Below, piece after piece: positions 12,736-64,000 of a stretch of 64,000 nt of DNA. The notes below the pieces were generated by a model. It did not search any database and was not told the origin of the DNA. It saw nothing but the letters and a program-made list of their open reading frames with translations. The first letter of the stretch is position 1, and every line of letters starts with the position of its first letter. The stretch is from NCBI GenBank assembly GCA_965225855.1, contig CBDDCK010000005.1, positions 160,001-224,000 on the forward strand, written 5' to 3'. Origin of the DNA: Spirochaetia bacterium. GTDB lineage: Bacteria; Spirochaetota; Spirochaetia; SP-2023. The translations under genes were made by a program, and so were the position numbers.

Positions 12736-12798
12736 AGGGATTTACACACTAGCCCGTATGGGTTGGCCAATCTTTATCCATTTTTGGAGGTATTGCTT

Positions 12799-21172: not shown

Positions 21173-21438
21173 ATCTGTCCTCGTTATTTTTTACAGTTTT
21201 TGCAAGTGCGAATAGTACGCAAATTTCAGATTTTATCCAAGATAACTAAAGGAATATACTAAAAAAATGAATACAATAACAAACAGCAATAGAGCAAGAC
21301 CAATAGTGTTTTTTATTTACAAATTTATTGGTTTCGTAACCTTGTTCTCGTAGCGTTTGCTAACTATAATCTGCAACAAATTTGTCGGCAATTGACGTAA
21401 TTAATAACCTGGATAGTATTTGTGAACAATCCCTGGAT

Positions 21439-23895: not shown

Positions 23896-23985
23896 ATAAG
23901 GCTTAAAAATGGGGATATGATTTGGATTGATTGCCAGAAACACTATTTTTTGCTAGTTTATAGAATCAATTTATAAGGGTTATCG

Positions 23986-25392: not shown

Positions 25393-25409
25393 GATTTTTA
25401 GGTACTATA

Positions 25410-26900: not shown

Positions 26901-27526
26901 TATTTTTTGATAATGAAAACTGTAAATTATTTTTTATAAGATTTTATCTATTATTTTTGTATAGTACAATAGGATTCTGTATCACCATAATTGGAATGGG
27001 GCAGGCCTATTTTATAGTTCAAAGCTCACCTGTAGGGGAGAATACAGCAGAGTTAGAGCAGCCCAGGCAGCACAGCCTAGGCCAATCGTATGGAAGGCCA
27101 GCCAAGCAATTTGAACAACAGCTACAGCAAACAAACCCGAAAGAAGTTCTAGTTAAGCCCAGTGCTCCATACCCACCATATCCCAACTACCCTGAACCCT
27201 CTATACCCTGCCCGCCACGAACTCCTAGAAGGGCATTGGATAATCAAGAGTACTTGTATTTGAACCATATCTATTTTCAACCATTGACCATAGCGATAGG
27301 CGATTTTGTCAGTTTTGGGTGGCTCACTCTCGTTGGGGCGAACAAGGCCTTGCGTTTAGGGCTGGATGTTTACAATGCAGGTAACAAGATAGCCTTTGAT
27401 GGTGGTTTCTTTGAGTATGTAACTAACGGTAATTTATTTACCGAGTCTAACTTCATTTACCCAGTAGAGCCCATCGCTTTAAAATTTAGCCTTCGCTTTG
27501 GTTTCGATGTAAGTTTTTTCTTTTAG
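26897..27526 (+). CDS. Hypothetical protein with Pro-rich linker
   Basis: ATGA overlap with the upstream stop; hydrophobic N-terminus; aromatic C-terminus FGFDVSFFF. Confidence 0.55.
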   Translation: MIFFDNENCKLFFIRFYLLFLYSTIGFCITIIGMGQAYFIVQSSPVGENTAELEQPRQHSLGQSYGRPAKQFEQQLQQTNPKEVLVKPSAPYPPYPNYPEPSIPCPPRTPRRALDNQEYLYLNHIYFQPLTIAIGDFVSFGWLTLVGANKALRLGLDVYNAGNKIAFDGGFFEYVTNGNLFTESNFIYPVEPIALKFSLRFGFDVSFFF

Positions 27527-40955: not shown

Positions 40956-41945
40956 TTAAAAAGTTTTGTTCTGTTCCCAGTGCCAGGCCGTGCTAATAAT
41001 TTGGCCTAAATCACGCTGTGGATTCCAAGCTAATTCGGCCTTGGCCTTACTACTATTGGCAATTAAACGAGCAGGGTCTCCGGGCCGAACAGGCCCCACT
41101 TCACAGGAAAAGTCGATACCAGTGATTTCTTTAGCTTTAGCAATTACTTCCCGTACCGAATAACCACTGCCACTGCCTAAGTTATAATCTGCAGAAATAT
41201 GCTGTTTGAGCATTTTTTCTAGTGCTAATACATGAGCTTTGGCTAAGTCATTAACATGGATAAAATCACGAATGCAAGAGCCATCGAAGGTGGGCCAATT
41301 GTCACCATAGATAATCAATTTCTCGCGGCGGCCCATAGCCGCTTCCAAGACAATGGAAATTAAATGTGTTGCTGGCTGGTACGATTGGCCTATTTTGCCA
41401 CCTTCATCGGCACCACAAGCATTGAAATAACGCAGTACTGTGGATTGCAAACCGTAAGCACGCTTGTAATCTTGTAACATCCATTCAACCATTAGCTTAG
41501 TGCGCCCATAGGGATTGAGGGGCATTTGCGGGTGCTGCTCATCAATTCTATCGGTTTGAGGTTTTCCAAAAGTGGCCGCAGTCGAGCTAAAAACAAAGTA
41601 CTTGATATTGCACGTTAGCATAGCCGCTAGCAAGCGTTGTACTTTGGTAACATTGTTTTCATAGTATAATTGTGGGTTGCTCACAGAAGTACCTACTTCA
41701 ATAAAGGCGGCAAAGTGCATTACTAAATCAATTTGATATTGACGCAGCACTTGTAAGATCTTTTCATAATCACCCAAATCACCCAGTACAAACAGGATTT
41801 CCGGCGAGATAGCGATAATTGCTTGCCGGTGACCTTTGCTTAGATCATCGTAAACAAATACGTTATGTTTGGTATTGTTCTTAATGTAGTTTACGGTATG
41901 CGAACCTATGTAGCCTGCGCCACCAACCACTAAAATATTTGCCAT
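40956..41945 (-). CDS. galE: UDP-glucose 4-epimerase
   Basis: GGAGYIGSH, HFAA, SSTAA, YGRTK, LRYFNA and RDFIHV. Confidence 0.95.
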   Translation of the reverse strand: MANILVVGGAGYIGSHTVNYIKNNTKHNVFVYDDLSKGHRQAIIAISPEILFVLGDLGDYEKILQVLRQYQIDLVMHFAAFIEVGTSVSNPQLYYENNVTKVQRLLAAMLTCNIKYFVFSSTAATFGKPQTDRIDEQHPQMPLNPYGRTKLMVEWMLQDYKRAYGLQSTVLRYFNACGADEGGKIGQSYQPATHLISIVLEAAMGRREKLIIYGDNWPTFDGSCIRDFIHVNDLAKAHVLALEKMLKQHISADYNLGSGSGYSVREVIAKAKEITGIDFSCEVGPVRPGDPARLIANSSKAKAELAWNPQRDLGQIISTAWHWEQNKTF

Positions 41946-41999
41946 AGTTGCTTTGCCTCTTTGTATCATTTTTTGTGGCAGATTATACAAACAAAGTAT

Positions 42000-43949: not shown

Positions 43950-45800
43950 TTATAAAACTTCAATACTAGTGGTTGTGTCTGCTGGACTACCCATTACAAA
44001 TCCTGCTGCTGCTTTAAGGTTGTATGCACCATTATTATCACGAAGACCAGTCTTAACCAGTATCTTATCGGCTTCCGCTTTTACACTACCGCTTAAAGTA
44101 ATGAAGAAGACGGTTTTTAATACAACTTTGCCTGTTGCTGTGTTTTCACCTGCGGTTGCGTGCTGGGGTAATGTGTAGCTATTATTACCATCACCGGATA
44201 CAAGCGTCAATTTGCTAAAGTCCCAGTCTGCAACTGTTGACGGTAAATTGACACCATAAAGCCGTAACTGGCCTTTATTAGGAAGGTAGTATACGAAGTT
44301 GATCTGGCTTGCGTAGCCACTAACGGTAATAGGGTTATTGCTTGTGTCTGCTGCCCTACCACCTGCAAAGCCTGCTGCTGCTTCCAGGTTGTATGCACCA
44401 CCAGTAATTCCTGTAAGACCATTCCTAGACAACATATCCTCGGCTTCCGCTTGCGCTTTTACCCTACCGCTTAAAGTAATCGTTAAGCTTGTTGCACTTG
44501 CTGCAGAACCTTCGGCTCTGTTTGCACCTGTGGTTGCGTGCTGGGGTAATGTGTAGCTGTGTAAACTATAACTTATTTTAAACCTCAATTTGCTAAAGTC
44601 CCAGCCTGCAACTGCTTTTGGTAAATTAGTACCTGTAATCACTAACACGCCTGTATTAGCATTGTAGGTTGCACTGGTAATTGCGGGTGGGTGTCCACTA
44701 ACGGCTAAGGCTTTGGCTGTATCTAAACCTGCCCAAGTACCAGTGCCAACGCTAAGCAACCCATCTTTTAGACCATTGCTATCCATACCGGGCTTGCCAT
44801 TTAGAGTAGCTTTATGTTGATCGGTAAGGTAAAGCCAAATCGCTGTGCCATCGCCTTTAATACGGTACTTACCTTTTGCAAGACTGCGACTATCTGGCCC
44901 AGTGGCTGTGCCATCTGCAGTATAGGAATCTAAAGCTATCCCATCTACCGTGATGGTTTGGATTTGGGCTTGGGTCGCACTAGCTAAGTGAGTACCTTGT
45001 AAAGTTAACAGCGCCGTGCCGACATGGTAGGTTGCACGGGTAATTGCAGCTTCGGGTAGTTCAGACGACTGCTCTTCGGTTTCGGTCTTAGACTGCTTAT
45101 CTTCGGCTTGTTCGGTTTGTTCGGCTTCGGGTAGTTCAGACGACTGCTCTTCGGTTTCGGTCTTAGACTGCTTATCTTCAGCTTGTTCGTCTTGTTCGTC
45201 TTTAGGTTGCTTAGGCGACTCCTCTTCAGCTTGTTCGACTTGTTTGTCTTTAGGTTGCTTAGGCGATTGATCATCGACTTGTTCGGTTTGTTCGGCTTCG
45301 GGTAACTTAGGCGACTCTTCTTCGGTTTCGGTCTGCTTATCGGGTATATTGCTAACGGTTAAGTCTTTGGCTGTATCTAAACCCGCCCAAGCACCAGAGC
45401 TAGTAAGCAACCCTTTTTTTAGACCATTGCTACCCACCTTGGCCTCAAGAACAGCTTTATGTTGATCGGTAAGTTTCAGCCAAAGCGCTGTGCCATCGGT
45501 TGCAATACGGTACTTACCTTTTGCAAGATCGCGACTATCTGGCCCAGTGGCTGGGTCATCTGCAGTATAGGAACTTAAGGCTACCCCATCTACTACGATG
45601 GTTTGGATTTGCGCTTCTGTAGGACTTAAGTTAGTACCTTGTACGGTTAACAGCGCCGTAGCAAAGTCGTAGATGGCGTTATTGATAGTCGGCTTAGACG
45701 GCCCAGAAGATCGATCATCGTCATCGGGTGGTGCGCAGGCAAAGGCCATAAAGGCCAGTAGCCAGGCTAATGGCAATAAAAATAGTTTGAGCTTATACAT
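43950..45800 (-). CDS. Surface lipoprotein (paralog 2 of 12799-14517)
   Basis: Near-identical N-terminus (FMAFA-CAPPDDDDRSS), same A-linker-A-B-B layout; longer acidic linker with a 75-bp duplication. Confidence 0.87.
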   Translation of the reverse strand: MYKLKLFLLPLAWLLAFMAFACAPPDDDDRSSGPSKPTINNAIYDFATALLTVQGTNLSPTEAQIQTIVVDGVALSSYTADDPATGPDSRDLAKGKYRIATDGTALWLKLTDQHKAVLEAKVGSNGLKKGLLTSSGAWAGLDTAKDLTVSNIPDKQTETEEESPKLPEAEQTEQVDDQSPKQPKDKQVEQAEEESPKQPKDEQDEQAEDKQSKTETEEQSSELPEAEQTEQAEDKQSKTETEEQSSELPEAAITRATYHVGTALLTLQGTHLASATQAQIQTITVDGIALDSYTADGTATGPDSRSLAKGKYRIKGDGTAIWLYLTDQHKATLNGKPGMDSNGLKDGLLSVGTGTWAGLDTAKALAVSGHPPAITSATYNANTGVLVITGTNLPKAVAGWDFSKLRFKISYSLHSYTLPQHATTGANRAEGSAASATSLTITLSGRVKAQAEAEDMLSRNGLTGITGGAYNLEAAAGFAGGRAADTSNNPITVSGYASQINFVYYLPNKGQLRLYGVNLPSTVADWDFSKLTLVSGDGNNSYTLPQHATAGENTATGKVVLKTVFFITLSGSVKAEADKILVKTGLRDNNGAYNLKAAAGFVMGSPADTTTSIEVL

Positions 45801-46265
45801 AAGCAATACCTCCAACAAGGGATAAAGATTAGCCAACCCATACGGGCTAGTGCATAGAGCCCTATTGTGTTAGGGGGGGAATTGAGTCAAGGCCTATATA
45901 AGATTTTTGTAAGTTTTTTTGTGCTTTTTTTATGTGTTGGCACTTTTTTTGTGTGTTAGTGTTGTTTTAGTGTTGGTTGGGGGTTAAAAATAAATGCCAA
46001 TCCATTTGCATTGAATATTAGTTGAATCTATAAACAATCAAAGCAACCAATCCATAGTTATAGACGCAACCAGTCCATAATTGTTACTTTTCAAAAGTAC
46101 ATAATTAGGGCATGGTTTGGTTTTTGTTGTGAAGGCTTGGGGTTGAGAGGGGTGGTGGCTTTTTGGAAAATTCCCCGTTATTGATAGTAAAGTATGCTTT
46201 GCTTTAATTGTTATTGGGTAAGCGCAGTCAAACTAAACCCCACTAATGAAACCTGTTGTGTCTTT

Positions 46266-49202
46266 TCACTCACCACCTGCAAATCCTTCTGATACTGACA
46301 AACATCTTTTGCAAATCAGTTTTCCGTATTTTGCCTCACCATCTGCAAATCCTTCTGATGATTCAAGGTTGTATGCACTAGGATTATCACGAATACCATA
46401 CTTAACCAGTATAGCATCGGCTTTGGCTTTTTCACTACCGCTTAAAGTAATCGTTAAGCTTGTTGTACTTGCATCAGAACCTGTGGCTGTGTCTCTACCT
46501 GAAGTTGCGTGCGCTTTTAGTGGAGCACTCTTAGAACCATTACCTGCGACAAACTGCAATTTGGTAAAGTCCCAGTCATCAACTGCTGTTGGTAAATTGA
46601 CACCTGTAATCACTAATTTACCCGTATCTACAGTATAGGTTACGCTGGTGATTGCGGGTAGCTTAGTAGGGGACTGCGGATTGTTTGCGCTTAGCTTATT
46701 AGACGACTGCGGATTGTTTGGGCTTGGCTTATTAGACGACTGCGGATTATTTGTGCTTAGCTTAGGAGTCGACTTTGGATTGTTTGTGCTTAGCTTAGTA
46801 GGGGACTGCGGATTGTTTGCGCTTAGCTTATTAGACGACTGCGGATTGTTTGGGCTTGGCTTAGTAGGGGACTGCGGATTGTTTGCGCTTAGCTTAGTAG
46901 TCGACTGCGGATTGTTTGGGCTTGGCTTATTAGACGACTGCTCATTAGCTGCGCTTAGCTTATTAGACGACTGCGGATTGTTTGGGCTTGGCTTATTAGA
47001 CGACTGCTCATTAGCTGCGCTTAGCTTATTAGACGACTGCGGATTGTTTAGGCTTGGCTTAGGAGTCGACTGCGTATTGTTTGTGCTTAAATTAGGAGGG
47101 GACTGTTGATTGTTTGTGCTTAGCTTAGTAGTCGACTGTTGATTGTTTGCGCTTGGATTGGTAGTCGACTGTTGATTGTTTGTGCTTAGCTTAGTAGTCG
47201 ACTGTTGATTGTTTGCGCTTGGATTAGGAGACGACTGTTGATTGTTTGTGCTTAGCTTAGTAGTCGACTGTTGATTGTTTGCGCTTGGATTAGGAGACGA
47301 CTGTTGATTGTTTGTGCTTAGCTTAGTAGTCGACTGCGTATTGTTTGTGCTTAGCTTAGTAGTCGACTGCGTATTGTTTGTGCTTAGCTTAGTAGTCGAC
47401 TGTTGATTGTTTGCGCTTGGCTTAGTAGTTGACTGCGTATTGTTTGTACTTGGCTTAGTAGTTGACTGCGGATTGTTTGGGCTTGGATTGGTAGGGGACT
47501 GCGGATTGTTTGGGCTTAGCTTAGTAGGGGACTGCGTATTGTTTGCGCTTGGATTGGTAGAAGACTGTTGATTGTTTGGGCTTAGCTTAGTAGGGGACTG
47601 CGTATTGTTTGCGCTTGGATTGGTAGAAGACTGTTGATTGTTTGCGCTTGGATTGGTAGAAGACTGTTGATTGTTTGCGCTTAGCTTAGTAGGGGACTGC
47701 GGATTGTTTGCGCTTGGATTGGTAGTCGACTGCGGATTGTTTGTGCTTGGCTTAGTAGTCGACTGTTGATTGTTTGCGCTTAGCTTAGTAGTCGACTGTT
47801 GATTGTTTGCGCTTGGATTGGTAGTCGACTGCGGATTGTTTGCGCTTGGATTGGTAGAAGACTGTTGATTGTTTGCGCTTGGATTGGTAGAAGACTGTTG
47901 ATTGTTTGCGCTTAGCTTAGTAGGGGACTGCGGATTGTTTGCGCTTAGCTTAGTAGGGGACTGCGGATTGTTTGTGCTTAGCTTAGTAGGGGACTGCGGA
48001 TTGTTTGCGCTTGGATTAGTAGGGGACTGCGGATTGTTTGCGCTTGGATTGGTAGTCGACTGCGGATTGTTTGCGCTTGGCTTAGTAGTCGACTGTTGAT
48101 TGTTTGTGCTTGGCTTAGTAGAAGACTGCGGATTGTTTGCGCTTGGATTGGTAGTCGACTGTTGATTGTTTGCGCTTGGATTGGTAGTCGACTGTTGATT
48201 GTTTGCGCTTGGATTGGTAGTCGACTGTTGATTGTTTGCGCTTGGATTGGTAGTCGACTGTTGATTGTTTGCGCTTGGATTGGTAGTCGACTGTTGATTG
48301 TTTGCGCTTGGATTGGTAGTCGACTGTTGATTGTTTGCGCTTGGATTGGTAGTCGACTGTTGATTGTTTGCGCTTAGCTTAGTAGAAGACTGCGGATTGT
48401 TTGCGCTTGGATTGGTAGTCGACTGTTGATTGTTTGCGCTTGGATTGGTAGTCGACTGTTGATTGTTTGCGCTTGGATTGGTAGTCGACTGTTGATTGTT
48501 TGCGCTTGGATTGGTAGTCGACTGTTGATTGTTTGCGCTTGGATTGGTAGTCGACTGTTGATTGTTTGCGCTTAGCTTAGTAGAAGACTGCGGATTGTTT
48601 GCGCTTGGATTGGTAGTCGACTGTTGATTGTTTGCGCTTGGATTGGTAGTCGACTGTTGATTGTTTGCGCTTGGATTGGTAGTCGACTGTTGATTGTTTG
48701 CGCTTAGCTTAGTAGAAGACTGCGGATTGTTTGCGCTTGGATTGGTAGAAGACTGTTGATTGTTTGGGCTTGGATTGGTAGGGGACTGCGGATTGTTTGT
48801 GCTTGGCTTAGTAGAAGACTGCGGATTGTTTGCGCTTGGATTGGTAGTCGACTGTTGATTGTTTGCGCTTGGATTGGTAGGCGACTGTTGATTGTTTGCG
48901 CTTGGCTTAGTAGGCGACTGTTGATTGTTTGCGCTTAGATTAGTAGGGGACTGCGGATTGTTTGGGCTTAGATTAGTAGGGGACTGCGGATTGTTTGGGC
49001 TTAGATTAGTAGGGGACTGTTGATTGTTTGCGCTTGGCTTAGTAGGCGACTGATTATTGTTTGCGCTTGGCTTAGTAGGGGACTGCTCATTATCTGCGCT
49101 TGGCTTACGAGGCGACTTATTATTGCCTTTGGCGCAGGAAAACGTCAGTATAAAGCCCAGTAACAACCCTACAGGGAATAAAAATAGTTTATACTTATTC
49201 AT
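46266..49202 (-). CDS. Lipoprotein with S/T/N/Q/P-rich 11-aa repeat stalk and a single domain B (paralog 3)
   Basis: Lipobox ILTFS-C; repeats (A/T/P)NN(Q/P)QS(T/P/S)T(N/K)(P/L)S; C-terminal WDFTKL...ITLSGS domain shared with paralogs 1 and 2. Confidence 0.85.
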   Translation of the reverse strand: MNKYKLFLFPVGLLLGFILTFSCAKGNNKSPRKPSADNEQSPTKPSANNNQSPTKPSANNQQSPTNLSPNNPQSPTNLSPNNPQSPTNLSANNQQSPTKPSANNQQSPTNPSANNQQSTTNPSANNPQSSTKPSTNNPQSPTNPSPNNQQSSTNPSANNPQSSTKLSANNQQSTTNPSANNQQSTTNPSANNQQSTTNPSANNPQSSTKLSANNQQSTTNPSANNQQSTTNPSANNQQSTTNPSANNQQSTTNPSANNQQSTTNPSANNPQSSTKLSANNQQSTTNPSANNQQSTTNPSANNQQSTTNPSANNQQSTTNPSANNQQSTTNPSANNQQSTTNPSANNQQSTTNPSANNPQSSTKPSTNNQQSTTKPSANNPQSTTNPSANNPQSPTNPSANNPQSPTKLSTNNPQSPTKLSANNPQSPTKLSANNQQSSTNPSANNQQSSTNPSANNPQSTTNPSANNQQSTTKLSANNQQSTTKPSTNNPQSTTNPSANNPQSPTKLSANNQQSSTNPSANNQQSSTNPSANNTQSPTKLSPNNQQSSTNPSANNTQSPTKLSPNNPQSPTNPSPNNPQSTTKPSTNNTQSTTKPSANNQQSTTKLSTNNTQSTTKLSTNNTQSTTKLSTNNQQSSPNPSANNQQSTTKLSTNNQQSSPNPSANNQQSTTKLSTNNQQSTTNPSANNQQSTTKLSTNNQQSPPNLSTNNTQSTPKPSLNNPQSSNKLSAANEQSSNKPSPNNPQSSNKLSAANEQSSNKPSPNNPQSTTKLSANNPQSPTKPSPNNPQSSNKLSANNPQSPTKLSTNNPKSTPKLSTNNPQSSNKPSPNNPQSSNKLSANNPQSPTKLPAITSVTYTVDTGKLVITGVNLPTAVDDWDFTKLQFVAGNGSKSAPLKAHATSGRDTATGSDASTTSLTITLSGSEKAKADAILVKYGIRDNPSAYNLESSEGFADGEAKYGKLICKRCLSVSEGFAGGE
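46657..49117 (-). repeat. ~74 x 33-bp coding tandem repeat
   Basis: Unit gactgttgattgtttgcgcttggattggtagtc and variants, contiguous, no spacers. Confidence 0.95.
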
Positions 49203-49615
49203 AGGCAACATCTCTAAAAAGAAATTGAGATTAGCAAACCCATACAAGCTGCTGTATAACGCCCTACTGTATAAGGAGGAGGAGGTGAGTCAAGGCCCTT
49301 ACAAACTTTTAGACACTTTTTTTGTGTTTTTGTTAGGTTCTTAGTATTGTAAGGTGGTTAAAAATCAATACCAATAAATTGATATTCAATATTATCTGAA
49401 TCCATAAATAATCAAAGTGACCAATCCATAGTTATAGACGCGACGAGTCGATAACTATGGGCCGACCTAGTCCATAATTGTTACTTTTAAAAAGTACATA
49501 ATTAGGTTACGGTTTGGTTTTTAGTGTGAAGGCTTGGGGGGTATTAAGCTTTACCGAATGCCCGAAAGCCCAAAGAAAGCTCAAGGTTGTGAAAATTAAC
49601 AATCGGGAACTGTTA

Positions 49616-54701: not shown

Positions 54702-55964
54702 ATGAAAATGGTTTTTGGGTATATCGATCCCGGTACGGGAAGTTTGTTATTTTCAGCTTTAGTTGGCTTGAGTATTTCATTTATTTATAGTTTGAAAGGC
54801 TTTTTTTATTCGTTATTGAGCCGTATTGTGGGTAAAAAAATTGGCTTGGTGCCGAAATTTTCTGGTCAATTGGTATTTTATTCTGAAGGAGCTCAGTATT
54901 GGAAAGTATTTCAACCTGTACTGCAGGCGCTTTTACAGAAAGAAAAAAGCTTTGTTTTTCTTACTTCTGATGCTAAAGACCCAGCAATTGAATATTTACA
55001 AGAGCATAATTCGGCACAAGCTCACTGTATCGGTTTATTGCCTCATGCAATACCTTTTTTGAATCGGCTTGAAGCAGATGTTGTAGTTTTGACGACACCA
55101 CAATTGGGGGTGCTACAACTCAAGCGCTCGCCGGTGGTTAGGCATTATTGCCATCTGCTACATGCCCCCATAGATATTCACAGTTATGAATTTTTTGCAT
55201 TTGATGAATTTGACTCTGTACTATGTTCGAGCAAGTTCCAGATAGAAAACTTGTTGTTTTTAGAAGAAAAACGCCCCTTAAACAAAAAGAAGCAACTGTT
55301 TGAGACTGGCTGTACTTATTACGATGAAATGACTAGCGAAAATCAAACCGAAGACAAGTTAGTTCTTTATGCACCTACATGGGGAGAAAAATCTTCTCTA
55401 TCGGTAGCGGAGAATATGATGCAAAAATTGATTGCTGAAGGATACCAAGTTTTATTCCGCCCACATCCGCAGTCTTTTGTTTCAGACAAAGAAATATTGG
55501 ATAGGCTTTGTTTGCAGTTTCAGAATGCAGAAAATTGGTTTCTGGATAGTAACAAAACTTTTACAGAGGCCTTCTCGCGCTGTGCTATAATGATTTGCGA
55601 CTTATCTGGTATAATATACGATTTTGCATTTCTGTATCAAAAACCTATTTTTGCTTTTAATACCTCTAGTAATCTAAAACTAGGTTATGAAGCATATTAC
55701 TTAGAACAGGAACTTTCGGCTATTTCATTATTGCAAACTACAGGGGGTGAATTGTTGGAAATTAACGATATAGCAAATATTATGGCTCGGCTTTCTACCG
55801 TGAATATAGTCAAAAAATCTACAATGGCAGAACCAACCAAAGAACCGCCGAAGTATATTACCCAATATGTGTATAATTTTGGCAATGCTGGAGTTGTTGC
55901 TGCCGAGCAAATCCTCTCTTTAGTAGCTACCTTTCCTAAAACTATTTTACGGCAACAAACTTGA
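54702..55964 (+). CDS. CDP-glycerol glycerophosphotransferase (TagF-like) family protein
   Basis: LYAPTWG, FRPHPQ and ICDLSGIIYDFAFL..KPI; N-terminal YIDPGTGS plus TM. Confidence 0.75.
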   Translation: MKMVFGYIDPGTGSLLFSALVGLSISFIYSLKGFFYSLLSRIVGKKIGLVPKFSGQLVFYSEGAQYWKVFQPVLQALLQKEKSFVFLTSDAKDPAIEYLQEHNSAQAHCIGLLPHAIPFLNRLEADVVVLTTPQLGVLQLKRSPVVRHYCHLLHAPIDIHSYEFFAFDEFDSVLCSSKFQIENLLFLEEKRPLNKKKQLFETGCTYYDEMTSENQTEDKLVLYAPTWGEKSSLSVAENMMQKLIAEGYQVLFRPHPQSFVSDKEILDRLCLQFQNAENWFLDSNKTFTEAFSRCAIMICDLSGIIYDFAFLYQKPIFAFNTSSNLKLGYEAYYLEQELSAISLLQTTGGELLEINDIANIMARLSTVNIVKKSTMAEPTKEPPKYITQYVYNFGNAGVVAAEQILSLVATFPKTILRQQT

Positions 55965-55989
55965 CTTGGCCAATAACTTACGGTATTTT
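55961..55989 (+). promoter_or_regulatory. Putative promoter carried in each repeat unit
   Basis: TTGACT-17 bp-TATTTT ending 10 nt before the ATG, no SD; repeated at +3293 and +6586. Confidence 0.45.
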
Positions 55990-55998
55990 TAGCGCACC

Positions 55999-58920
55999 AT
56001 GGGATATATTATTTTCCCTTTAAGCTATTCATTCCAGTTTGTTTTAGAAACATTTTATACGCTAACCCAAAATTATGGGCTAGCTATTATTTTCCTTGCC
56101 ATTTTGGTTAGCATTGTATTACTGCCATTGCAACTATGGGCCGACAAATTACAGCAAAAAGATTTAGACGAAAAAAATGCCATGCGCTGGGCTTTGGATT
56201 CAATTAGCCGTTTAGCCAATGCCCAAAAGAAATTTTATTGCACTAAGGAAATCTACCGTAGATACGGCTATAATCCGATAAAATCTTTACGCGGTTTAAT
56301 TGGCCTGTTGATTCAATTGCCATTTTTTTTAGCGGCCTACTTTATGCTGGGCAGCTTTAGCGATTTTTCGGGCCAAAGTTTCCTAATAATTAAAGATTTA
56401 GCCACTCCAGATGCTTTACTGAAAGGCTATAACTTTTTACCGCTATTCATGACTTTGGTAAATTTGCTATCGGCCGGTTTCTATTTACTCCCCAAAAACA
56501 ATGTAGACCGCTCTGCAATGGTATCTCAATTGCTTTTGCCAATGTTATTTTTGATGTTACTATACAATAAAAGCTCGGCACTGTTGTTGTATTGGACTTG
56601 TAATAATCTATTTTCACTGGCAAAGAATTATTGCCAGAGTAGGGCGATTATTACAGCCATTACTAAAGAAAAGCAAATTTTTAGTTTTAGATTCTGGACT
56701 AATTTTTGTGCCAATGTCGTCAGCCATAGATTTTGTTTACCGATAACAGTGGTTTTGTCTGGTATTTTATTGGCTTTATACGGCCTGATGGAAGACCGAC
56801 TCTATGCCCATAAACTAATGAAATTCAATTTATTGGTATTAGATGCTTTAATTGTAATAATTTTATACCAATATCGTGCACAATTAAAGAAAATACTTAC
56901 ACAGAACTTTGGCCAAATACAAGTGGTTATAGCCATTATTTTGCTGTTCAATTTAGTAGCATTTCATTTGCATAAACTATTTGGCTTGGCTTTATTTACA
57001 TTAACCAATGATATACCTAGCTTAGTATTCAGCCAAATATTGGCTTTATTGCTAATAAGAAATATATTAATACCCCCCAGTATTGCCTACCGGTTATTTT
57101 ATCAATTCAGAGATACTATAAAGTCTTTGCTTTCATTTGAAATAAAAGGCGGTTGTTATATTATCGGGGTATTTTTGCTACAAATATTTTTATATACCCC
57201 AGCAATCATATATTTCAAAGCACCTTTGGATTTTGGCCAAATAGAATTTCATATTGTTTTATGGTATTTTATAAGCTGTATTTCCATAACCATATTGCTA
57301 TCCAGATATATCAGTAAATGGTGGTTGGGCGCATCATCTATGAAAAAGCATATTAAAAATTTTTGTTTGATTGCCATTGTATTTATTACCATGGTGAATT
57401 TCTTTTATGGCTATATTTACCAGCTAGATTTAGGCATTATTCGAGGGTTGCGCTTTGTCAATGAAAAAGCATTGACTGAATTGCCAAAATCTACATTGAT
57501 TTTGGAGCTTATTTTATTGTGTGTTGCTTTTTTGTTGTTCATTCGATTCGGGGGTTTTGTTGCGAAATTTTCCCGCCATATATCATTGACTATTGGCTCG
57601 ATTGGTTTGGTATTGCTGGCCAATGTATGGCTACAAAATATTGACGAAATCAAAAAATCTTTTGCCCCGCAAGAGATTGTAGCGAGTGAACAACAAAATT
57701 CACTAGATAAAACGATAGCCAATTATTTTGCAGACAATTATGAAGTATTTAATTTTTCTAAAGAAAAGAATATTTTGGTTTTGATTTTTGATGCGTTTCC
57801 TGCCAATATGTTAGAAGATATTTTCAAGCAAAACCCAGAAATAAAGAAAGGTTTAGATGGATTTGTTTGGTATAAAAATACCGTTTCTACTGGGAGTGCT
57901 ACGATGAACAGTATTAATGCAATGACTGGAGGACCAGAATATATTATTTCTAAAATTAATAAGAAACCAAATCATGATCTTACAATTCAAGAGTTAACTA
58001 CAAAGAATTGGGCAAATTTATATAACGCAGTAGGTGCTGAAAAAGATGGATATGCTTTATCTACAAATGAACATGTCTCTTATAAATCTCAATTATTATT
58101 TAATTTATATCTAAATAATTCTGTTAATATGCTTAAAAAGCTAAAGATTAAAGGGGAATCATCTTCTAGCCAAAGATTTTTATTTGGTGTTTCTGTGTTT
58201 AAACTCTCCCCAATTTTTTTAAAACGAAAAATATATAATGGTGGCTATTGGAGAGGATTTGTTAGTTTGTTTCCTTCAGATTATTCTGAATATGTTTTGT
58301 TTGAAAATATGGCGCAAAACTTGTCATATACTAGCTCAAAGCCAACTTTTAAATATTTTTGGACAAGTTTAACACATACTCCATATCATATCAACAAAGA
58401 TGGTCAATGGATTATGTCTCAAGACTTAAAGCAAAAGCAAGATTTTAATCCAAATTCAGATCAAAGTAAAAAGTTTACAATGAAATATGCAATACAAAAA
58501 ATTATAGAGATTGTTCAGGCATTTAAAGATAATGATATATACAACCAAACCAAAATTATTGTGGCTTCCGATCACGGTGGAGCAGAAAAAGATTGGAATG
58601 ATTGGGCCTTATATTCTTTAATGATGGTCAAAGATTTTGATTCTATTGGGAAATTTGAGGTCTCGGACATTCCCATTTCAAACGCCGATATTCCGGCCAT
58701 GATTGGTACGGGTATTGACCCAACTGGCAAGTTTAATACTGAAAATAACTTTGGTACCGATTACACCAAAGAGCCCGATATGGACAGAATATTAGAATAT
58801 CATATTGTAACTGGAGAAGTAGATTACAAGCGAGATACAAAATACCCTGCTGGTAAAATAATTTCCATTCAGGGCGACCCTTATAATAGGGATAATTGGC
58901 AAGTGGCAGAATTTGAGTAA
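55999..58920 (+). CDS. YidC/Oxa1-like domain fused to sulfatase/LtaS-like domain (copy A)
   Basis: YGLAII..LLPL, LLIQLPFF and ALLLYWTCNNLFS (YidC-like); TM block; LIFDAF, STGSAT, THTPY and VASDHG (alkaline-phosphatase superfamily). Confidence 0.8.
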   Translation: MGYIIFPLSYSFQFVLETFYTLTQNYGLAIIFLAILVSIVLLPLQLWADKLQQKDLDEKNAMRWALDSISRLANAQKKFYCTKEIYRRYGYNPIKSLRGLIGLLIQLPFFLAAYFMLGSFSDFSGQSFLIIKDLATPDALLKGYNFLPLFMTLVNLLSAGFYLLPKNNVDRSAMVSQLLLPMLFLMLLYNKSSALLLYWTCNNLFSLAKNYCQSRAIITAITKEKQIFSFRFWTNFCANVVSHRFCLPITVVLSGILLALYGLMEDRLYAHKLMKFNLLVLDALIVIILYQYRAQLKKILTQNFGQIQVVIAIILLFNLVAFHLHKLFGLALFTLTNDIPSLVFSQILALLLIRNILIPPSIAYRLFYQFRDTIKSLLSFEIKGGCYIIGVFLLQIFLYTPAIIYFKAPLDFGQIEFHIVLWYFISCISITILLSRYISKWWLGASSMKKHIKNFCLIAIVFITMVNFFYGYIYQLDLGIIRGLRFVNEKALTELPKSTLILELILLCVAFLLFIRFGGFVAKFSRHISLTIGSIGLVLLANVWLQNIDEIKKSFAPQEIVASEQQNSLDKTIANYFADNYEVFNFSKEKNILVLIFDAFPANMLEDIFKQNPEIKKGLDGFVWYKNTVSTGSATMNSINAMTGGPEYIISKINKKPNHDLTIQELTTKNWANLYNAVGAEKDGYALSTNEHVSYKSQLLFNLYLNNSVNMLKKLKIKGESSSSQRFLFGVSVFKLSPIFLKRKIYNGGYWRGFVSLFPSDYSEYVLFENMAQNLSYTSSKPTFKYFWTSLTHTPYHINKDGQWIMSQDLKQKQDFNPNSDQSKKFTMKYAIQKIIEIVQAFKDNDIYNQTKIIVASDHGGAEKDWNDWALYSLMMVKDFDSIGKFEVSDIPISNADIPAMIGTGIDPTGKFNTENNFGTDYTKEPDMDRILEYHIVTGEVDYKRDTKYPAGKIISIQGDPYNRDNWQVAEFE

Positions 58921-58957
58921 GTTTTTATTTCCATTTGCCAAAAAATGCCCTATATTA

Positions 58958-59257
58958 TCTAGTAATCTAAAACTAGGTTATGAAGCATATTACTTAGAAC
59001 AGGAACTTTCGGCTATTTCATTATTGCAAACTACAGGGGGTGAATTGTTGGAAATTAACGATATAGCAAATATTATGGCTCGGCTTTCTACCGTGAATAT
59101 AGTCAAAAAATCTACAATGGCAGAACCAACCAAAGAACCGCCGAAGTATATTACCCAATATGTGTATAATTTTGGCAATGCTGGAGTTGTTGCTGCCGAG
59201 CAAATCCTCTCTTTAGTAGCTACCTTTCCTAAAACTATTTTACGGCAACAAACTTGA
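58958..59257 (+). pseudogene. Duplicated 3' fragment of the TagF-like gene
   Basis: Matches 55665-55964. Confidence 0.85.
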
Positions 59258-59291
59258 CTTGGCCAATAACTTACGGTATTTTTAGCGCACC

Positions 59292-62213
59292 ATGGGATAT
59301 ATTATTTTCCCTTTAAGCCATTCATTCCAGTTTGTTTTAGAAACATTTTATATGCTAACCCAAAATTATGGGCTAGCTATTATGCTATTGTCTGGTTTGG
59401 TTTCTGTTTTATTGCTGCCGTTACAATTGTGGGCCGACAAACTGCAACAAAAAGATTTCAACGAAAAAGACGCCATGCGCTGGGCTTTGGATTCAATTAG
59501 CCGTTTAGCCAATGCCCAAAAGAAATTTTATTACACCCATTATATTTATAAAAAATATAAATATCGCCCAATAAAATCTTTACGCAGTTTAATTGGCCTG
59601 TTGATTCAATTGCCATTTTTTTTAGCGGCCTACTTTATGCTGGGCAGCTTTAGCGATTTTTCGGGCCAAAGTTTCCTAATAATTAAAGATTTAGCCACTC
59701 CAGATGCTTTACTGAAAGGCTATAACTTTTTACCGCTATTCATGACTTTGGTAAATTTGCTATCGGCCGGTTTCTATTTACTCCCCAAAAACAATGTAGA
59801 CCGCTCTGCAATGGTATCTCAATTGCTTTTGCCAATGTTATTTTTGATGTTACTATACAATAAAAGCTCGGCACTGTTGTTGTATTGGACTTGTAATAAT
59901 CTATTTTCACTGGCAAAGAATTATTGCCAGAGTAGGGCGATTATTACAGCCATTACTAAAGAAAAGCAAATTTTTAGTTTTAGATTCTGGACTAATTTTT
60001 GTGCCAATGTCGTCAGCCATAGATTTTGTTTACCGATAACAGTGGTTTTGTCTGGTATTTTATTGGCTTTATACGGCCTGATGGAAGACCGACTCTATGC
60101 CCATAAACTAATGAAATTCAATTTATTGGTATTAGATGCTTTAATTGTAATAATTTTATACCAATATCGTGCACAATTAAAGAAAATACTTACACAGAAC
60201 TTTGGCCAAATACAAGTGGTTATAGCCATTATTTTGCTGTTCAATTTAGTAGCATTTCATTTGCATAAACTATTTGGCTTGGCTTTATTTACATTAACCA
60301 ATGATATACCTAGCTTAGTATTCAGCCAAATATTGGCTTTATTGCTAATAAGAAATATATTAATACCCCCCAGTATTGCCTACCGGTTATTTTATCAATT
60401 TAAAGATACTATCGAATCCTTATTGTCATTTGAAATAAAAGGTGGCTCTTATATTATTGGGGTATTTTTGCTACAAATATTTTTATATACCCCAGCAATC
60501 ATATATTTCAAAGCACCTTTGGATTTTGGCCAAATAGAATTTCATATTGTTTTATGGTATTTTATAAGCTGTATTTCCATAACCATATTGCTATCCAGAT
60601 ATATCAGTAAATGGTGGTTGGGCGCATCATCTATGAAAAAGCATATTAAAAATTTTTGTTTGATTGCCATTGTATTTATTACCATGGTGAATTTCTTTTA
60701 TGGCTATATTTACCAGCTAGATTTAGGCATTATTCGAGGGTTGCGCTTTGTCAATGAAAAAGCATTGACTGAATTGCCAAAATCTACATTGATTTTGGAG
60801 CTTATTTTATTGTGTGTTGCTTTTTTGTTGTTCATTCGATTCGGGGGTTTTGTTGCGAAATTTTCCCGCCATATATCATTGACTATTGGCTCGATTGGTT
60901 TGGTATTGCTGGCCAATGTATGGCTACAAAATATTGACGAAATCAAAAAATCTTTTGCCCCGCAAGAGATTGTAGCGAGTGAACAACAAAATTCACTAGA
61001 TAAAACGATAGCCAATTATTTTGCAGACAATTATGAAGTATTTAATTTTTCTAAAGAAAAAAATATTTTGGTATTAGTTTTTGATGCCTTTGCAGCCAAC
61101 ATGTTAGAAGATATTTTCAAGCAAAACCCAGAAATAAAAAATGGTTTAGATGGATTTGTTTGGTATAAAAATACCGTTTCTACTGGGAGTGCTACGATGA
61201 ACAGTATTAATGCAATGACTGGAGGACCAGATTATACTGTTTCTAAAATTAACAAGAAACCGTATCATGAGCTTACACTTCAAGAATTAATTACAAAGAA
61301 TTTTGCGAATTTATCTAATTCTATAAATACATATGGTGAATATAATTCATCTATGTTCTATGGAGCTGTTCCCTATGCATCTAGGGAATTATTGAAATTA
61401 TATCTAAATAATTCTGTTAATATGCTTAAAAAGCTAAAGATTAAAGGGGAATCATCTTCTAGCCAAAGATTTTTATTTGGTGTTTCTGTGTTTAAACTCT
61501 CCCCAATTTTTTTAAAACGAAAAATATATAATGGTGGCTATTGGAGAGGATTTGTTAGTTTGTTTCCTTCAGATTATTCTGAATATGTTTTGTTTGAAAA
61601 TATGGCGCAAAACTTGTCATATACTAGCTCAAAGCCAACTTTTAAATATTTTTGGACAAGTTTAACACATACTCCATATCATATCAACAAAGATGGTCAA
61701 TGGATTATGTCTCAAGACTTAAAGCAAAAGCAAGATTTTAATCCAAATTCAGATCAAAGTAAAAAGTTTACAATGAAATATGCAATACAAAAAATTATAG
61801 AGATTGTTCAGGCATTTAAAGATAATGATATATACAACCAAACCAAAATTATTGTGGCTTCCGATCACGGTGGAGCAGAAAAAGATTGGAATGATTGGGC
61901 CTTATATTCTTTAATGATGGTCAAAGATTTTGATTCTATTGGGAAATTTGAGGTCTCGGACATTCCCATTTCAAACGCCGATATTCCGGCCATGATTGGT
62001 ACGGGTATTGACCCAACTGGCAAGTTTAATACTGAAAATAACTTTGGTACCGATTACACCAAAGAGCCCGATATGGACAGAATATTAGAATATCATATTG
62101 TAACTGGAGAAGTAGATTACAAGCGAGATACAAAATACCCTGCTGGTAAAATAATTTCCATTCAGGGCGACCCTTATAATAGGGATAATTGGCAAGTGGC
62201 AGAATTTGAGTAA
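59292..62213 (+). CDS. YidC-like/sulfatase fusion (copy B)
   Basis: 973 aa; same as copy A except for discrete patches. Confidence 0.8.
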   Translation: MGYIIFPLSHSFQFVLETFYMLTQNYGLAIMLLSGLVSVLLLPLQLWADKLQQKDFNEKDAMRWALDSISRLANAQKKFYYTHYIYKKYKYRPIKSLRSLIGLLIQLPFFLAAYFMLGSFSDFSGQSFLIIKDLATPDALLKGYNFLPLFMTLVNLLSAGFYLLPKNNVDRSAMVSQLLLPMLFLMLLYNKSSALLLYWTCNNLFSLAKNYCQSRAIITAITKEKQIFSFRFWTNFCANVVSHRFCLPITVVLSGILLALYGLMEDRLYAHKLMKFNLLVLDALIVIILYQYRAQLKKILTQNFGQIQVVIAIILLFNLVAFHLHKLFGLALFTLTNDIPSLVFSQILALLLIRNILIPPSIAYRLFYQFKDTIESLLSFEIKGGSYIIGVFLLQIFLYTPAIIYFKAPLDFGQIEFHIVLWYFISCISITILLSRYISKWWLGASSMKKHIKNFCLIAIVFITMVNFFYGYIYQLDLGIIRGLRFVNEKALTELPKSTLILELILLCVAFLLFIRFGGFVAKFSRHISLTIGSIGLVLLANVWLQNIDEIKKSFAPQEIVASEQQNSLDKTIANYFADNYEVFNFSKEKNILVLVFDAFAANMLEDIFKQNPEIKNGLDGFVWYKNTVSTGSATMNSINAMTGGPDYTVSKINKKPYHELTLQELITKNFANLSNSINTYGEYNSSMFYGAVPYASRELLKLYLNNSVNMLKKLKIKGESSSSQRFLFGVSVFKLSPIFLKRKIYNGGYWRGFVSLFPSDYSEYVLFENMAQNLSYTSSKPTFKYFWTSLTHTPYHINKDGQWIMSQDLKQKQDFNPNSDQSKKFTMKYAIQKIIEIVQAFKDNDIYNQTKIIVASDHGGAEKDWNDWALYSLMMVKDFDSIGKFEVSDIPISNADIPAMIGTGIDPTGKFNTENNFGTDYTKEPDMDRILEYHIVTGEVDYKRDTKYPAGKIISIQGDPYNRDNWQVAEFE

Positions 62214-62250
62214 GTTTTTATTTCCATTTGCCAAAAAATGCCCTATATTA

Positions 62251-62550
62251 TCTAGTAATCTAAAACTAGGTTATGAAGCATATTACTTAGAACAGGAACT
62301 TTCGGCTATTTCATTATTGCAAACTACAGGGGGTGAATTGTTGGAAATTAACGATATAGCAAATATTATGGCTCGGCTTTCTACCGTGAATATAGTCAAA
62401 AAATCTACAATGGCAGAACCAACCAAAGAACCGCCGAAGTATATTACCCAATATGTGTATAATTTTGGCAATGCTGGAGTTGTTGCTGCCGAGCAAATCC
62501 TCTCTTTAGTAGCTACCTTTCCTAAAACTATTTTACGGCAACAAACTTGA
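62251..62550 (+). pseudogene. Duplicated 3' fragment of the TagF-like gene
   Basis: Matches 55665-55964. Confidence 0.85.
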
Positions 62551-62584
62551 CTTGGCCAATAACTTACGGTATTTTTAGCGCACC

Positions 62585-64000
62585 ATGGGATATATTATTT
62601 TCCCTTTAAGCTATTCATTCCAGTTTGTTTTAGAAACATTTTATACGCTAACCCAAAATTATGGGCTAGCTATTATTTTCCTTGCCATTTTGGTTAGCAT
62701 TGTATTACTGCCATTGCAACTATGGGCCGACAAATTACAGCAAAAAGATTTAGACGAAAAAAATGCCATGCGCTGGGCTTTGGATTCAATTAGCCGTTTA
62801 GCCAATGCCCAAAAGAAATTTTATTGCACTAAGGAAATCTACCGTAGATACGGCTATAATCCGATAAAATCTTTACGCGGTTTAATTGGCCTGTTGATTC
62901 AATTGCCATTTTTTTTAGCGGCCTACTTTATGCTGGGCAGCTTTAGCGATTTTTCGGGCCAAAGTTTCCTAATAATTAAAGATTTAGCCACTCCAGATGC
63001 TTTACTGAAAGGCTATAACTTTTTACCGCTATTCATGACTTTGGTAAATTTGCTATCGGCCGGTTTCTATTTACTCCCCAAAAACAATGTAGACCGCTCT
63101 GCAATGGTATCTCAATTGCTTTTGCCAATGTTATTTTTGATGTTACTATACAATAAAAGCTCGGCACTGTTGTTGTATTGGACTTGTAATAATCTATTTT
63201 CACTGGCAAAGAATTATTGCCAGAGTAGGGCGATTATTACAGCCATTACTAAAGAAAAGCAAATTTTTAGTTTTAGATTCTGGACTAATTTTTGTGCCAA
63301 TGTCGTCAGCCATAGATTTTGTTTACCGATAACAGTGGTTTTGTCTGGTATTTTATTGGCTTTATACGGCCTGATGGAAGACCGACTCTATGCCCATAAA
63401 CTAATGAAATTCAATTTATTGGTATTAGATGCTTTAATTGTAATAATTTTATACCAATATCGTGCACAATTAAAGAAAATACTTACACAGAACTTTGGCC
63501 AAATACAAGTGGTTATAGCCATTATTTTGCTGTTCAATTTAGTAGCATTTCATTTGCATAAACTATTTGGCTTGGCTTTATTTACATTAACCAATGATAT
63601 ACCTAGCTTAGTATTCAGCCAAATATTGGCTTTATTGCTAATAAGAAATATATTAATACCCCCCAGTATTGCCTACCGGTTATTTTATCAATTCAGAGAT
63701 ACTATAAAGTCTTTGCTTTCATTTGAAATAAAAGGCGGTTGTTATATTATCGGGGTATTTTTGCTACAAATATTTTTATATACCCCAGCAATCATATATT
63801 TCAAAGCACCTTTGGATTTTGGCCAAATAGAATTTCATATTGTTTTATGGTATTTTATAAGCTGTATTTCCATAACCATATTGCTATCCAGATATATCAG
63901 TAAATGGTGGTTGGGCGCATCATCTATGAAAAAGCATATTAAAAATTTTTGTTTGATTGCCATTGTATTTATTACCATGGTGAATTTCTTTTATGGCTAT
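62585..64000 (+). CDS. YidC-like/sulfatase fusion (third copy, A-type, truncated by window edge)
   Basis: ATG at 62585; carries A-type alleles at the 5' patch and at ~63695-63755. Confidence 0.8.
   Translation, partial: MGYIIFPLSYSFQFVLETFYTLTQNYGLAIIFLAILVSIVLLPLQLWADKLQQKDLDEKNAMRWALDSISRLANAQKKFYCTKEIYRRYGYNPIKSLRGLIGLLIQLPFFLAAYFMLGSFSDFSGQSFLIIKDLATPDALLKGYNFLPLFMTLVNLLSAGFYLLPKNNVDRSAMVSQLLLPMLFLMLLYNKSSALLLYWTCNNLFSLAKNYCQSRAIITAITKEKQIFSFRFWTNFCANVVSHRFCLPITVVLSGILLALYGLMEDRLYAHKLMKFNLLVLDALIVIILYQYRAQLKKILTQNFGQIQVVIAIILLFNLVAFHLHKLFGLALFTLTNDIPSLVFSQILALLLIRNILIPPSIAYRLFYQFRDTIKSLLSFEIKGGCYIIGVFLLQIFLYTPAIIYFKAPLDFGQIEFHIVLWYFISCISITILLSRYISKWWLGASSMKKHIKNFCLIAIVFITMVNFFYGY

Follow-up and report, generated by a model that had tools for sequence, protein, structure and literature searches.

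A conserved membrane module of TagF-like enzymes and YidC-like/alkaline-phosphatase-fold fusion proteins in a Spirochaetia genome, with a predicted role in envelope decoration

The window analysed here is the 64,000-nucleotide stretch at positions 160,001 to 224,000 of contig CBDDCK010000005.1 (C5 below; assembly GCA_965225855.1) of a Spirochaetia bacterium. Its last part carries a TagF-like gene and, directly downstream, tandem genes for 973-residue fusions of a YidC-like core, a membrane block and an alkaline-phosphatase-fold domain. This arrangement, noticed in an earlier sequence-only reading, is confirmed by the open reading frames (ORFs), motifs and Pfam matches. The features are as follows, the last two lying beyond the window at window-equivalent positions.

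54702..55964, + strand: TagF-like GT-B phosphotransferase gene, 420 amino acids, with N-terminal YIDP membrane helix; predicted cytoplasmic loader
54720..54797, + strand: YIDPGTGS motif and the membrane helix after it, residues 7-32 of the TagF-like protein
55999..58920, + strand: fusion copy 1, 973 amino acids; YidC-like core, about nine more membrane helices, alkaline-phosphatase-fold domain
55999..56640, + strand: YidC-like core of fusion copy 1 (residues 1-214)
58024..58338, + strand: hypervariable stretch in the catalytic domain of copy 1, residues 676-780
58913..59257, + strand: remnant ORF, 3' end of the TagF-like gene, without catalytic core
59292..62213, + strand: fusion copy 2, 973 amino acids, mosaic
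62206..62550, + strand: second remnant ORF, TagF-like 3' end
62585..64000, + strand: fusion copy 3, cut by the window end, complete to window-equivalent 65506
65918-67234 (C5:225918-227234): cytidylyltransferase-phosphoenolpyruvate (PEP) mutase, after copy 3
67235-68365: iron-dependent alcohol dehydrogenase (Fe-ADH), after the cytidylyltransferase-PEP mutase

The three tandem fusion genes follow the TagF-like gene with a repeat period of 3,293 bp, and the other two copies show 94% and 90% identity to copy 1. Copy 3 is whole in the genome (C5:222585-225506, window-equivalent 62585-65506, 973 amino acids). Each repeat unit also duplicates the 3' end of the TagF-like gene, ~99 codons long, within a remnant ORF of 114 codons, and these remnants were ruled out as functional genes because the catalytic core is absent. 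An assembly artefact as the origin of the array was also ruled out, since contig depth fits four copies and the copies differ. In run X1, a possible source sample in which no single piece spans the whole array, the depth was ~11 on unique flanks versus 45-46 on the shared membrane-part sequence, in line with four real copies, three in the array and one at C5:1.46 Mb. Full-length fusion paralogues lie at three other places in the genome (C5:599475, C5:746516 and C5:1458593), and a second TagF-like gene at C5:96428. The separate canonical yidC that the sequence-only reading had wanted confirmed was found at C5:1727100-1728974; it encodes 624 amino acids and occupies the housekeeping rnpA-yidC-jag context (neighbours named from translations), whereas the fusions lie outside that context. 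Promoter and terminator scans of the locus gave results near chance.

Pfam searches of the fusion revealed PF02096 at residues 26-212 (E 7e-22), where TIGR03592 also matches the YidC-like part, and a weak match to PF00884 at residues 591-861 (E 4e-5, below its cut-off). The AlphaFold2 model of the fusion was built from 118 sequences and has a mean predicted local distance difference test (pLDDT) score of 71. Residues 1-214 align with E. coli YidC 6al2_A (Z 18.0, root-mean-square deviation 3.1, 200 residues aligned), forming a core of five helices with a cytoplasmic coiled coil and a polar groove, so that the N-terminus does model as a YidC fold, as had been suspected. Similar to YidC/Oxa1/Alb3 (6AL2/3WVF) in these elements and in its PF02096 and TIGR03592 matches, the core differs from them in lacking TM1/the periplasmic domain and the lipoprotein leader, in carrying its groove charge at the Q527 site and not at R366, and in being enzyme-fused, patchily distributed and multicopy in a separate clade. 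It is in frame with 154 of 177 catalytic domains and is kept on all six paralogues of this genome.

The model of residues 588-973 matches YejM, LtaS, BcsG, EptC and sulfatases with Z 18-20, a comparison that does not tell these apart. The motifs FDAF, STGSAT, THTPY, SDHG and LVSIVLLPL were read in the fusions, with THRPF instead of THTPY in copy 3. Among 123 rows of the fusion alignment, D598, H793, D858 and H859 are invariant (123/123) and position 635 is Thr in 121; by correspondence with known enzymes we take T635 to be the nucleophile and the Asp and His residues to be metal ligands. The Cys/Ser-x-Pro-x-Arg motif of sulfatases is absent (Thr in 121/123, and the residues listed for +4 include no Arg), and the domain has SDH, not the SDN of sulfatases. 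Fold and nucleophile together uphold the proposal of a Thr-nucleophile phosphotransferase-type domain. The middle membrane block (residues ~224-570) is modelled at low confidence with nine helices, and Lys plus Arg number 28 inside versus 9 outside; both fit a catalytic domain that is predicted to face outward. EptA/MCR-1, EptC, BcsG, LtaS and YejM/PbgA combine a membrane block with an outer catalytic domain, as is predicted here, and share the Thr nucleophile and Asp/His ligands. However, the fusions have a YidC core and a TagF-like partner gene and show 10-16% identity to solved members, and no NCBIfam LtaS, EptA or OpgB model matches either window fusion copy at E 0.1. The known EptA/LtaS-type members draw on bulk phospholipids.

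The 420-residue protein matches PF04464 over cut-off (E 9e-9), and a PDB profile search with it matched only Cps3D and TarL. Its model (pLDDT 86) adopts a GT-B fold close to TagF 3l7i (Z 18.3) and TarL 8va1 (Z 18.2), with UDP-GlcNAc 2-epimerases scoring as high (Z 19-20.5). H154, P225/W227, R253-P-H255 and D300/S302 are invariant in 47 TagF-like rows, so that both catalytic His motifs (H154, H255) shared with TagF/TarL/Cps3D are kept in 47/47; their catalytic roles are presumably the same. Unlike those enzymes, the protein begins with a YIDP helix, has neighbours that make phosphonate, choline or phosphoramidate donors and falls below all NCBIfam Tag/Tar models. This helix is a fourth conserved part which, like the repeat-borne TagF-like 3' remnants, goes beyond what had been read from the window. 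Of the 139 distinct TagF-like bodies, 135 have it on the same chain; its Tyr, Asp and Pro are kept in 135/135, a hydroxyl residue at +5 in 134/135 and Ser at +7 in 130/135. The four remaining bodies comprise two with a separate miniprotein, one with the helix upstream in another frame and one cut by the locus edge. In the fusion-centred set, which was fetched without a YIDP pattern, 45/47 carry the helix. By a crude rule, a signal-peptide-like leader precedes ~28/135 of the helices and ends exactly ahead of the Tyr. Free YIDP miniproteins of 68 and 59 residues occur in the split loci L014 and L180; because the helix survives as a separate gene, it must do more than anchor TagF. Covariation in a paired alignment (115 pairs, effective number of sequences ~93) gave only gap- and phylogeny-driven signals and none for the YIDP helix, and an Atlas search with the YLDP miniprotein returned unnamed clusters only, all under 0.9.

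Groove positions were numbered from a profile alignment to E. coli YidC 4utq_A. Copy 1 has Ser38 at the R366 site, Lys209 at the Q527 site and Trp199 at the Y517 site. Across the family, Lys or Arg occurs at the R366 site in 0/123 rows and 0/120 further matches, and at least 172 of 173 locus rows, which include near-copies, are neutral there. By contrast, the Q527 site is Lys or Arg in 122/123, 120/120 and 173/173, and Trp occupies the 517 site in 173/173. Six canonical YidCs show the reverse pattern at the R366 and Q527 sites. Because Lys or Arg is fixed at the Q527-equivalent site, the positive charge of the groove has moved there and has not been lost. The YidC-like cores form a separate clade (SH-aLRT 100), as judged against only six canonical rows from one class. 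The replacement of the groove Arg by Ser had been put forward as a sign of repurposing: the change is real and family-wide, but by itself it is no evidence of repurposing, as an E. coli YidC that combines R366N with Trp at 517 complements YidC depletion completely (PMC8920935, which names 527 as a groove residue). This combination is the commonest in the family.

Full-length homologues of the fusion numbered 187 among 8,000 candidates, and their database label is YidC ('YidC insertase'). The pairing of fusion and TagF-like gene is near-obligate. In 71 fusion-centred genome loci (the best of 556 matches, in 3 of 64 collection parts), a TagF-like gene is present in 50, within 600 bp in 47; 16 lack room and 5 are true orphans. 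In 80 TagF-centred metagenome loci (the best of 344, fetched by a pattern containing YIDP), the fusion is present in 72, within 600 bp in 66, with 7 lacking room and 1 exception. Among 121 genomes sampled from this phylum, which include kin so that the counts are not independent, the fusion occurs in 23, all of them with a TagF-like gene; the conserved linkage suggested earlier is thereby borne out. The 24th TagF-like genome (G101) has the transferase, a YLDP miniprotein, the TagF-like protein and the YidC-like protein as four adjacent genes, and so does L014; the loci with a split module are L014 and L180. TagF-like matches are single in 21/24 genomes, compared with 1-6 fusion matches per genome. 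Within the same genus, G002 and G003 carry the fusion, the TagF-like gene and the mutase, and G001 (89% complete) has none of the three. Besides the 24/121 genomes of this phylum, holders occur in Bacillota, Bacteroidota and proteobacteria; the pathway had been assigned to diderms, where it is indeed present, but it is not restricted to them, as monoderm Bacillota also have it. No family match was found in the plasmids or viral contigs searched, an RNA search listed no holder, and a search for the stand-alone YidC-like core returned mostly short-contig fragments.

Other architectures join the same parts differently. P0247 (MBR3515840.1) is a triple fusion of 1,420 residues, YidC::TagF::LtaS-like, whose groove is of the canonical type and whose chain lacks the YIDP motif; YidC may have been recruited a second time here. 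P0241-P0244 are YIDP-TagF::LtaS-like fusions, and the P0242 cluster (WP_187533424, Erysipelothrix inopinata) is a YIDP-TagF::membrane::LtaS-like fusion. In a sister species of E. inopinata, the tagF-like gene and capsule phosphocholine have reportedly been studied; a 2019 paper is said to treat a tagF-like gene of Erysipelothrix rhusiopathiae, which, if it belongs to this family, could lower the novelty of the present findings. At two further loci (L009:9974-12217 and L090:8205-10379), a YidC-like core sits on another, very divergent alkaline-phosphatase-fold clade, which Pfam and the family profile miss and in which the D, T, H and SDHG motifs are recognisable.

The array is directly followed by the cytidylyltransferase-PEP mutase, which matches TIGR02320 over cut-off, and the Fe-ADH beside it has as its second-best NCBIfam match TIGR03405, a phosphonate-cluster model, under cut-off. 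The loop of this mutase reads EDKVNNRDNF (EDKX5NF), compared with the EDKxGLKKNS consensus of 20 homologues, and the HxGH motif of its cytidylyltransferase is intact; the gene may serve mainly as a cytidylyltransferase. The PEP mutase motif is EDKX5NS (PMC6697681). A second cytidylyltransferase-mutase with a motif-intact Ppm lies at C5:556054-557355, and Ppd (over cut-off) together with a cytidylyltransferase-aminotransferase (CTase-AEPT) at C5:1567865-1570490. The latter enzyme (C5:1567865-1569286, L007:51-1472) is an HxGH cytidylyltransferase fused to a class V aminotransferase and adjoins Ppd; the characterised PntC-AEPT fusion uses another nucleotidyltransferase family, PF12804 (PMC6697681). 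The Pnt-type phosphonate gene set (Ppm, Ppd, CTase-AEPT, Fe-ADH) is complete at the genome level but dispersed, with three cytidylyltransferase domains fused to phosphonate enzymes. In this genome (94% complete), no LicD, no choline kinase (LicA) and, by profile, no stand-alone TagD-type HxGH cytidylyltransferase was matched; TagO/A/B/LCP were not searched. Based on the genes just past the window and the other nucleotidyltransferases of the genome, the donor here is likely CMP-hydroxyethyl- or CMP-aminoethylphosphonate, not CDP-glycerol. The Fom1 domain equivalent to the cytidylyltransferase makes CMP-2-hydroxyethylphosphonate (CMP-HEP), and the steps from CMP-phosphonate to the cell surface were stated in 2019 to be unknown (PMC6697681).

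Donor genes adjoin the module in 83 of 151 loci (47/75 among loci of at least 12 kb). The labels are HEP in 13, 2-aminoethylphosphonate (AEP) in 11, other phosphonate in 8, choline-type in 12 (choline kinase/LicC or BCCT genes, outside this genome), nucleotidyltransferase-decarboxylase fusion in 15 (two also phosphonate-labelled), phosphoramidate-type in 3, a lone nucleotidyltransferase in 23 and none in 68. Because the donor genes vary among phosphonate, choline and phosphoramidate types, the family appears to be a general head-group decoration module and not a teichoic-acid polymerase. In the phosphoramidate-type context (L009:3776-12217, L014:9653-18232 and L092), a kinase resembling pyruvate phosphate dikinase, a glutamine amidotransferase and a nucleotidyltransferase lie beside the module, a set that resembles the Campylobacter phosphoramidate donor genes; L009 belongs to the culturable Christiangramia gaetbulicola DSM 23082. 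HEP clusters of a five-gene type occur at L011-L013 and L077. The fusions at the 15 loci (L023, L037, L042, L058, L067 and others) consist of a LicC-like nucleotidyltransferase and a domain of class I/II aminotransferase fold, and may act as a phosphoserine/threonine decarboxylase on the way to a CDP-amino alcohol.

Taken together, the TagF-like enzyme, the YIDP helix, the YidC-like core and the LtaS/EptA-like domain appear to constitute a conserved four-part membrane module. Taking the readings below together, we regard a role in decorating the envelope with small head groups, predicted here to be 2-hydroxyethyl- or 2-aminoethylphosphonate, as very probable. We propose a route of loading, crossing and transfer in which a lipid-linked head-group donor crosses the inner membrane at the YidC-like groove, a crossing to which we give an even chance. 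In the first step, PEP mutase, decarboxylase and Fe-ADH or transaminase would produce HEP or AEP, and the fused cytidylyltransferase domains would form the CMP-conjugate; the genes themselves are present, and the chemistry is assigned by homology to Fom1 and PntC. The cytoplasmic TagF-like domain would then move the head group from CMP to the hydroxyl of a membrane lipid, with diacylglycerol, a glycolipid or a polyprenol as candidate carriers. The YidC-like groove, whose charge sits at the Q527 site, would pass the charged lipid to the outer leaflet and hand it to the catalytic domain of its own chain, while the YIDP helix would dock the loader. Finally, Thr635 would form a covalent intermediate, as in the chemistry of EptA and LtaS, and the group would be transferred to a surface glycan, glycolipid or lipoprotein. 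One or two loaders would serve several transferases. Crossing at the groove is the best-supported reading because E. coli YidC scrambles phospholipids in vitro (PMC11047089), and the retention of the YidC core on 154/177 catalytic domains and on six paralogues suggests direct hand-off or docking and not bulk flipping.

GtrABC and Arn are among the known three-component systems. The GtlA-GtcA-GtlB glycosylation system has the same order of lipid loading, flip and outside transfer (bioRxiv 10.1101/2019.12.12.873851), a logic that we deduce for the present module from topology and fusions; however, no protein family is in common, and the cargo here would be a phospho-head group. The Pnt/Lic pathways (Fom1 CyTase-Ppm, PntC, LicA/B/C/D) share the upstream cytidylyl activation of HEP, AEP or phosphocholine, but LicD was not found in this genome; the available main text of that work contains no 'YidC', 'TagF' or 'sulfatase' (PMC6697681). 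A broader proposal is that a YidC-family protein has been recruited as a transport core which moves a covalently charged YIDP N-tail or a dedicated head-group lipid from a TagF-like loader to its own transferase, that it provides the missing LicD-independent surface route for CMP-phosphonates, CDP-choline and CDP-phosphoramidate, and that the arrays are recombining acceptor-specificity cassettes. We offer this as a tentative possibility, on balance somewhat doubtful.

Several observations weigh against crossing at the groove or against the predicted donor. The membrane block is of low confidence, and helix counts by hydropathy range from 2 to 12 in the family. The partner is absent at 5 fusion loci and 1 TagF-like locus with at least 3 kb on both sides. 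A bulk flippase would be needless on every paralogue. The PEP mutase next to the array deviates from the EDKX5NS motif, PEP mutase occurs in only 5/23 module-bearing genomes, and 68/151 loci have no visible donor gene. In a test on 40 rows, with 40/90 triples clearly labelled, donor type needed 11 changes on the TagF tree, a fit scarcely better than on the catalytic tree (12) or the YidC tree (14). Not every version needs the charge swap, since the triple fusion P0247 has retained a K/Q groove of the canonical kind. In addition, the groove may still insert proteins, R366N with 517W being an active insertase in E. coli.

This last point leads to a rival that is unlikely, although it has the most in its favour among the alternatives: within the same decoration pathway, the YidC-like core would serve as private insertase, chaperone or docking scaffold, holding the YIDP helix or folding its own membrane block to let loader and transferase come together, and the lipid would cross otherwise. 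The N/S/T-366 and W-517 groove of the family matches the active E. coli variant, each paralogue keeps its own YidC core, and the YIDP helix, which survives as a miniprotein, resembles a single-span N-out YidC substrate. However, the genome already has a canonical yidC, and the ~28/135 leader-bearing YIDP helices should need no private insertase, yet K/R-527 is found in 173/173.

The YIDP helix itself could be more than a docking element. The invariant Tyr (or a Thr/Ser) of YIDPGTGS would then be a covalent carrier in the manner of PatA-PatB, loaded by the TagF-like enzyme, moved across as a charged N-tail by the YidC groove and unloaded by the LtaS-like Thr. We know of no precedent for reversible tail movement through YidC, and we consider such a peptide shuttle less likely still than a scaffold. 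The strong conservation of Y, D, P and the two hydroxyl positions, the leaders that stop exactly ahead of the Tyr and the retention of the helix as a separate gene once cut from TagF are all consistent with it, and the fixed groove Lys could hold a phosphoester. Plain docking explains the conservation equally well, the conservation set is biased by the 80 loci fetched by a YIDP-containing pattern, and the P0247 chain has no YIDP motif. DltB-DltX-DltD is another relay between an MBOAT and an SGNH enzyme. Tyr-peptide shuttling has been shown for MBOAT-SGNH pairs such as PatA-PatB, in which an invariant Tyr and a small membrane peptide stand between inner and outer enzyme (PMC12148441); the folds are unrelated and the chemistry is acyl and not phospho, and the shuttle role here is hypothetical.

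The sequence-only reading had named a teichoic-acid-like polymer or decoration pathway. In a polymer pathway of this kind, the TagF-like enzyme would polymerise from CDP-glycerol and the LtaS-like domain would polymerise or anchor the chain. The PF04464 match, the TagF/TarL catalytic motifs and fold and a stand-alone cytidylyltransferase in 11/151 loci agree with it. We regard this pathway as improbable: the neighbours and the other nucleotidyltransferases of the genome point to CMP-phosphonates, donors vary across the family and most identifiable ones (choline, HEP, AEP, phosphoramidate) are non-polyol, no stand-alone TagD-type gene was found by profile in this genome, and the window proteins match no NCBIfam Tag/Tar or LtaS model at E 0.1. 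The outer domain might instead edit or recycle head groups by hydrolysis, as a phosphodiesterase, phosphonate monoesterase or sulfatase. This is very improbable: sulfatases and phosphonate monoester hydrolases do reach the scores of transferases in searches by fold and by profile, but the domain has a Thr nucleophile without Cys/Ser-x-Pro-x-Arg, SDH instead of SDN, an EptA/YejM-like membrane block and linkage to biosynthetic genes.

In the literature searched, which excludes most subscription papers and supplements, no description of the fusion, the fusion/TagF-like pair or the YIDP motif was found, in keeping with the earlier statement that no functional description was known. The new elements here are the 24/24 concordance at the level of genomes, the charge swap fixed across the family, the caveat that published work places on the Arg loss, the mosaic structure of the array and the hypothesis of a shuttle. 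The module is a concrete, testable candidate for how activated phosphonates reach bacterial surfaces, steps stated to be unknown (PMC6697681). With choline and phosphoramidate genes also beside it, it may represent a general LicD-independent decoration route; if so, the YidC fold would be used beyond general protein biogenesis. The fixed R366-to-Q527 charge swap offers a direct mutational handle.

Comparison of the fusion copies revealed a uniform membrane half and a diversified catalytic half. Up to and including residue 675, copy 3 does not differ from copy 1; beyond it, copy 3 has a different catalytic-domain allele. Copy 2 is a mosaic, with patches of its own sequence in the N-terminus of the YidC part and in residues 586-700, and it matches copy 1 exactly from about residue 703 onward. 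Over residues 1-585, copy 1 is 97-100% identical to copy 3 and the distant fourth copy, whereas over residues 676-780 it is only 42-43% identical to copies 3 and 4. The ratio of nonsynonymous to synonymous substitution rates (dN/dS) is ~0.7-0.9 in residues 676-780 versus ~0.2 in residues 781-973; positive selection on the former was rejected, as the ratio is raised yet not above 1 over the region. Between paralogues, the YidC core is the best-kept region (39-43% identity versus 12-13% in the membrane block). The pattern suggests that the membrane half was homogenised recently while older, diverged catalytic alleles persisted, and the array likely gives a wider acceptor range. By the LtaS architecture, the variable stretch would lie behind the nucleophile helix, and from this place it may shape acceptor choice.

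Possible decoration acceptors include a predicted lipoprotein family with a shared leader, of which a crude pattern finds 103 ORFs on all five contigs. Its window members at 12763-14517 and 43950-45836 have no Pfam match at 1e-8. At 46266-49247 on the - strand lies a gene for a 993-residue predicted lipoprotein, without Pfam match, made mostly of 11-residue repeats rich in Ser/Thr/Asn/Gln/Pro. Envelope-glycan genes at 19790-27526 and 40956-41990 encode a UDP-sugar dehydrogenase, an MMPL protein, an initiating sugar transferase and a NAD-dependent epimerase/dehydratase, and are a possible source of the acceptor glycan.

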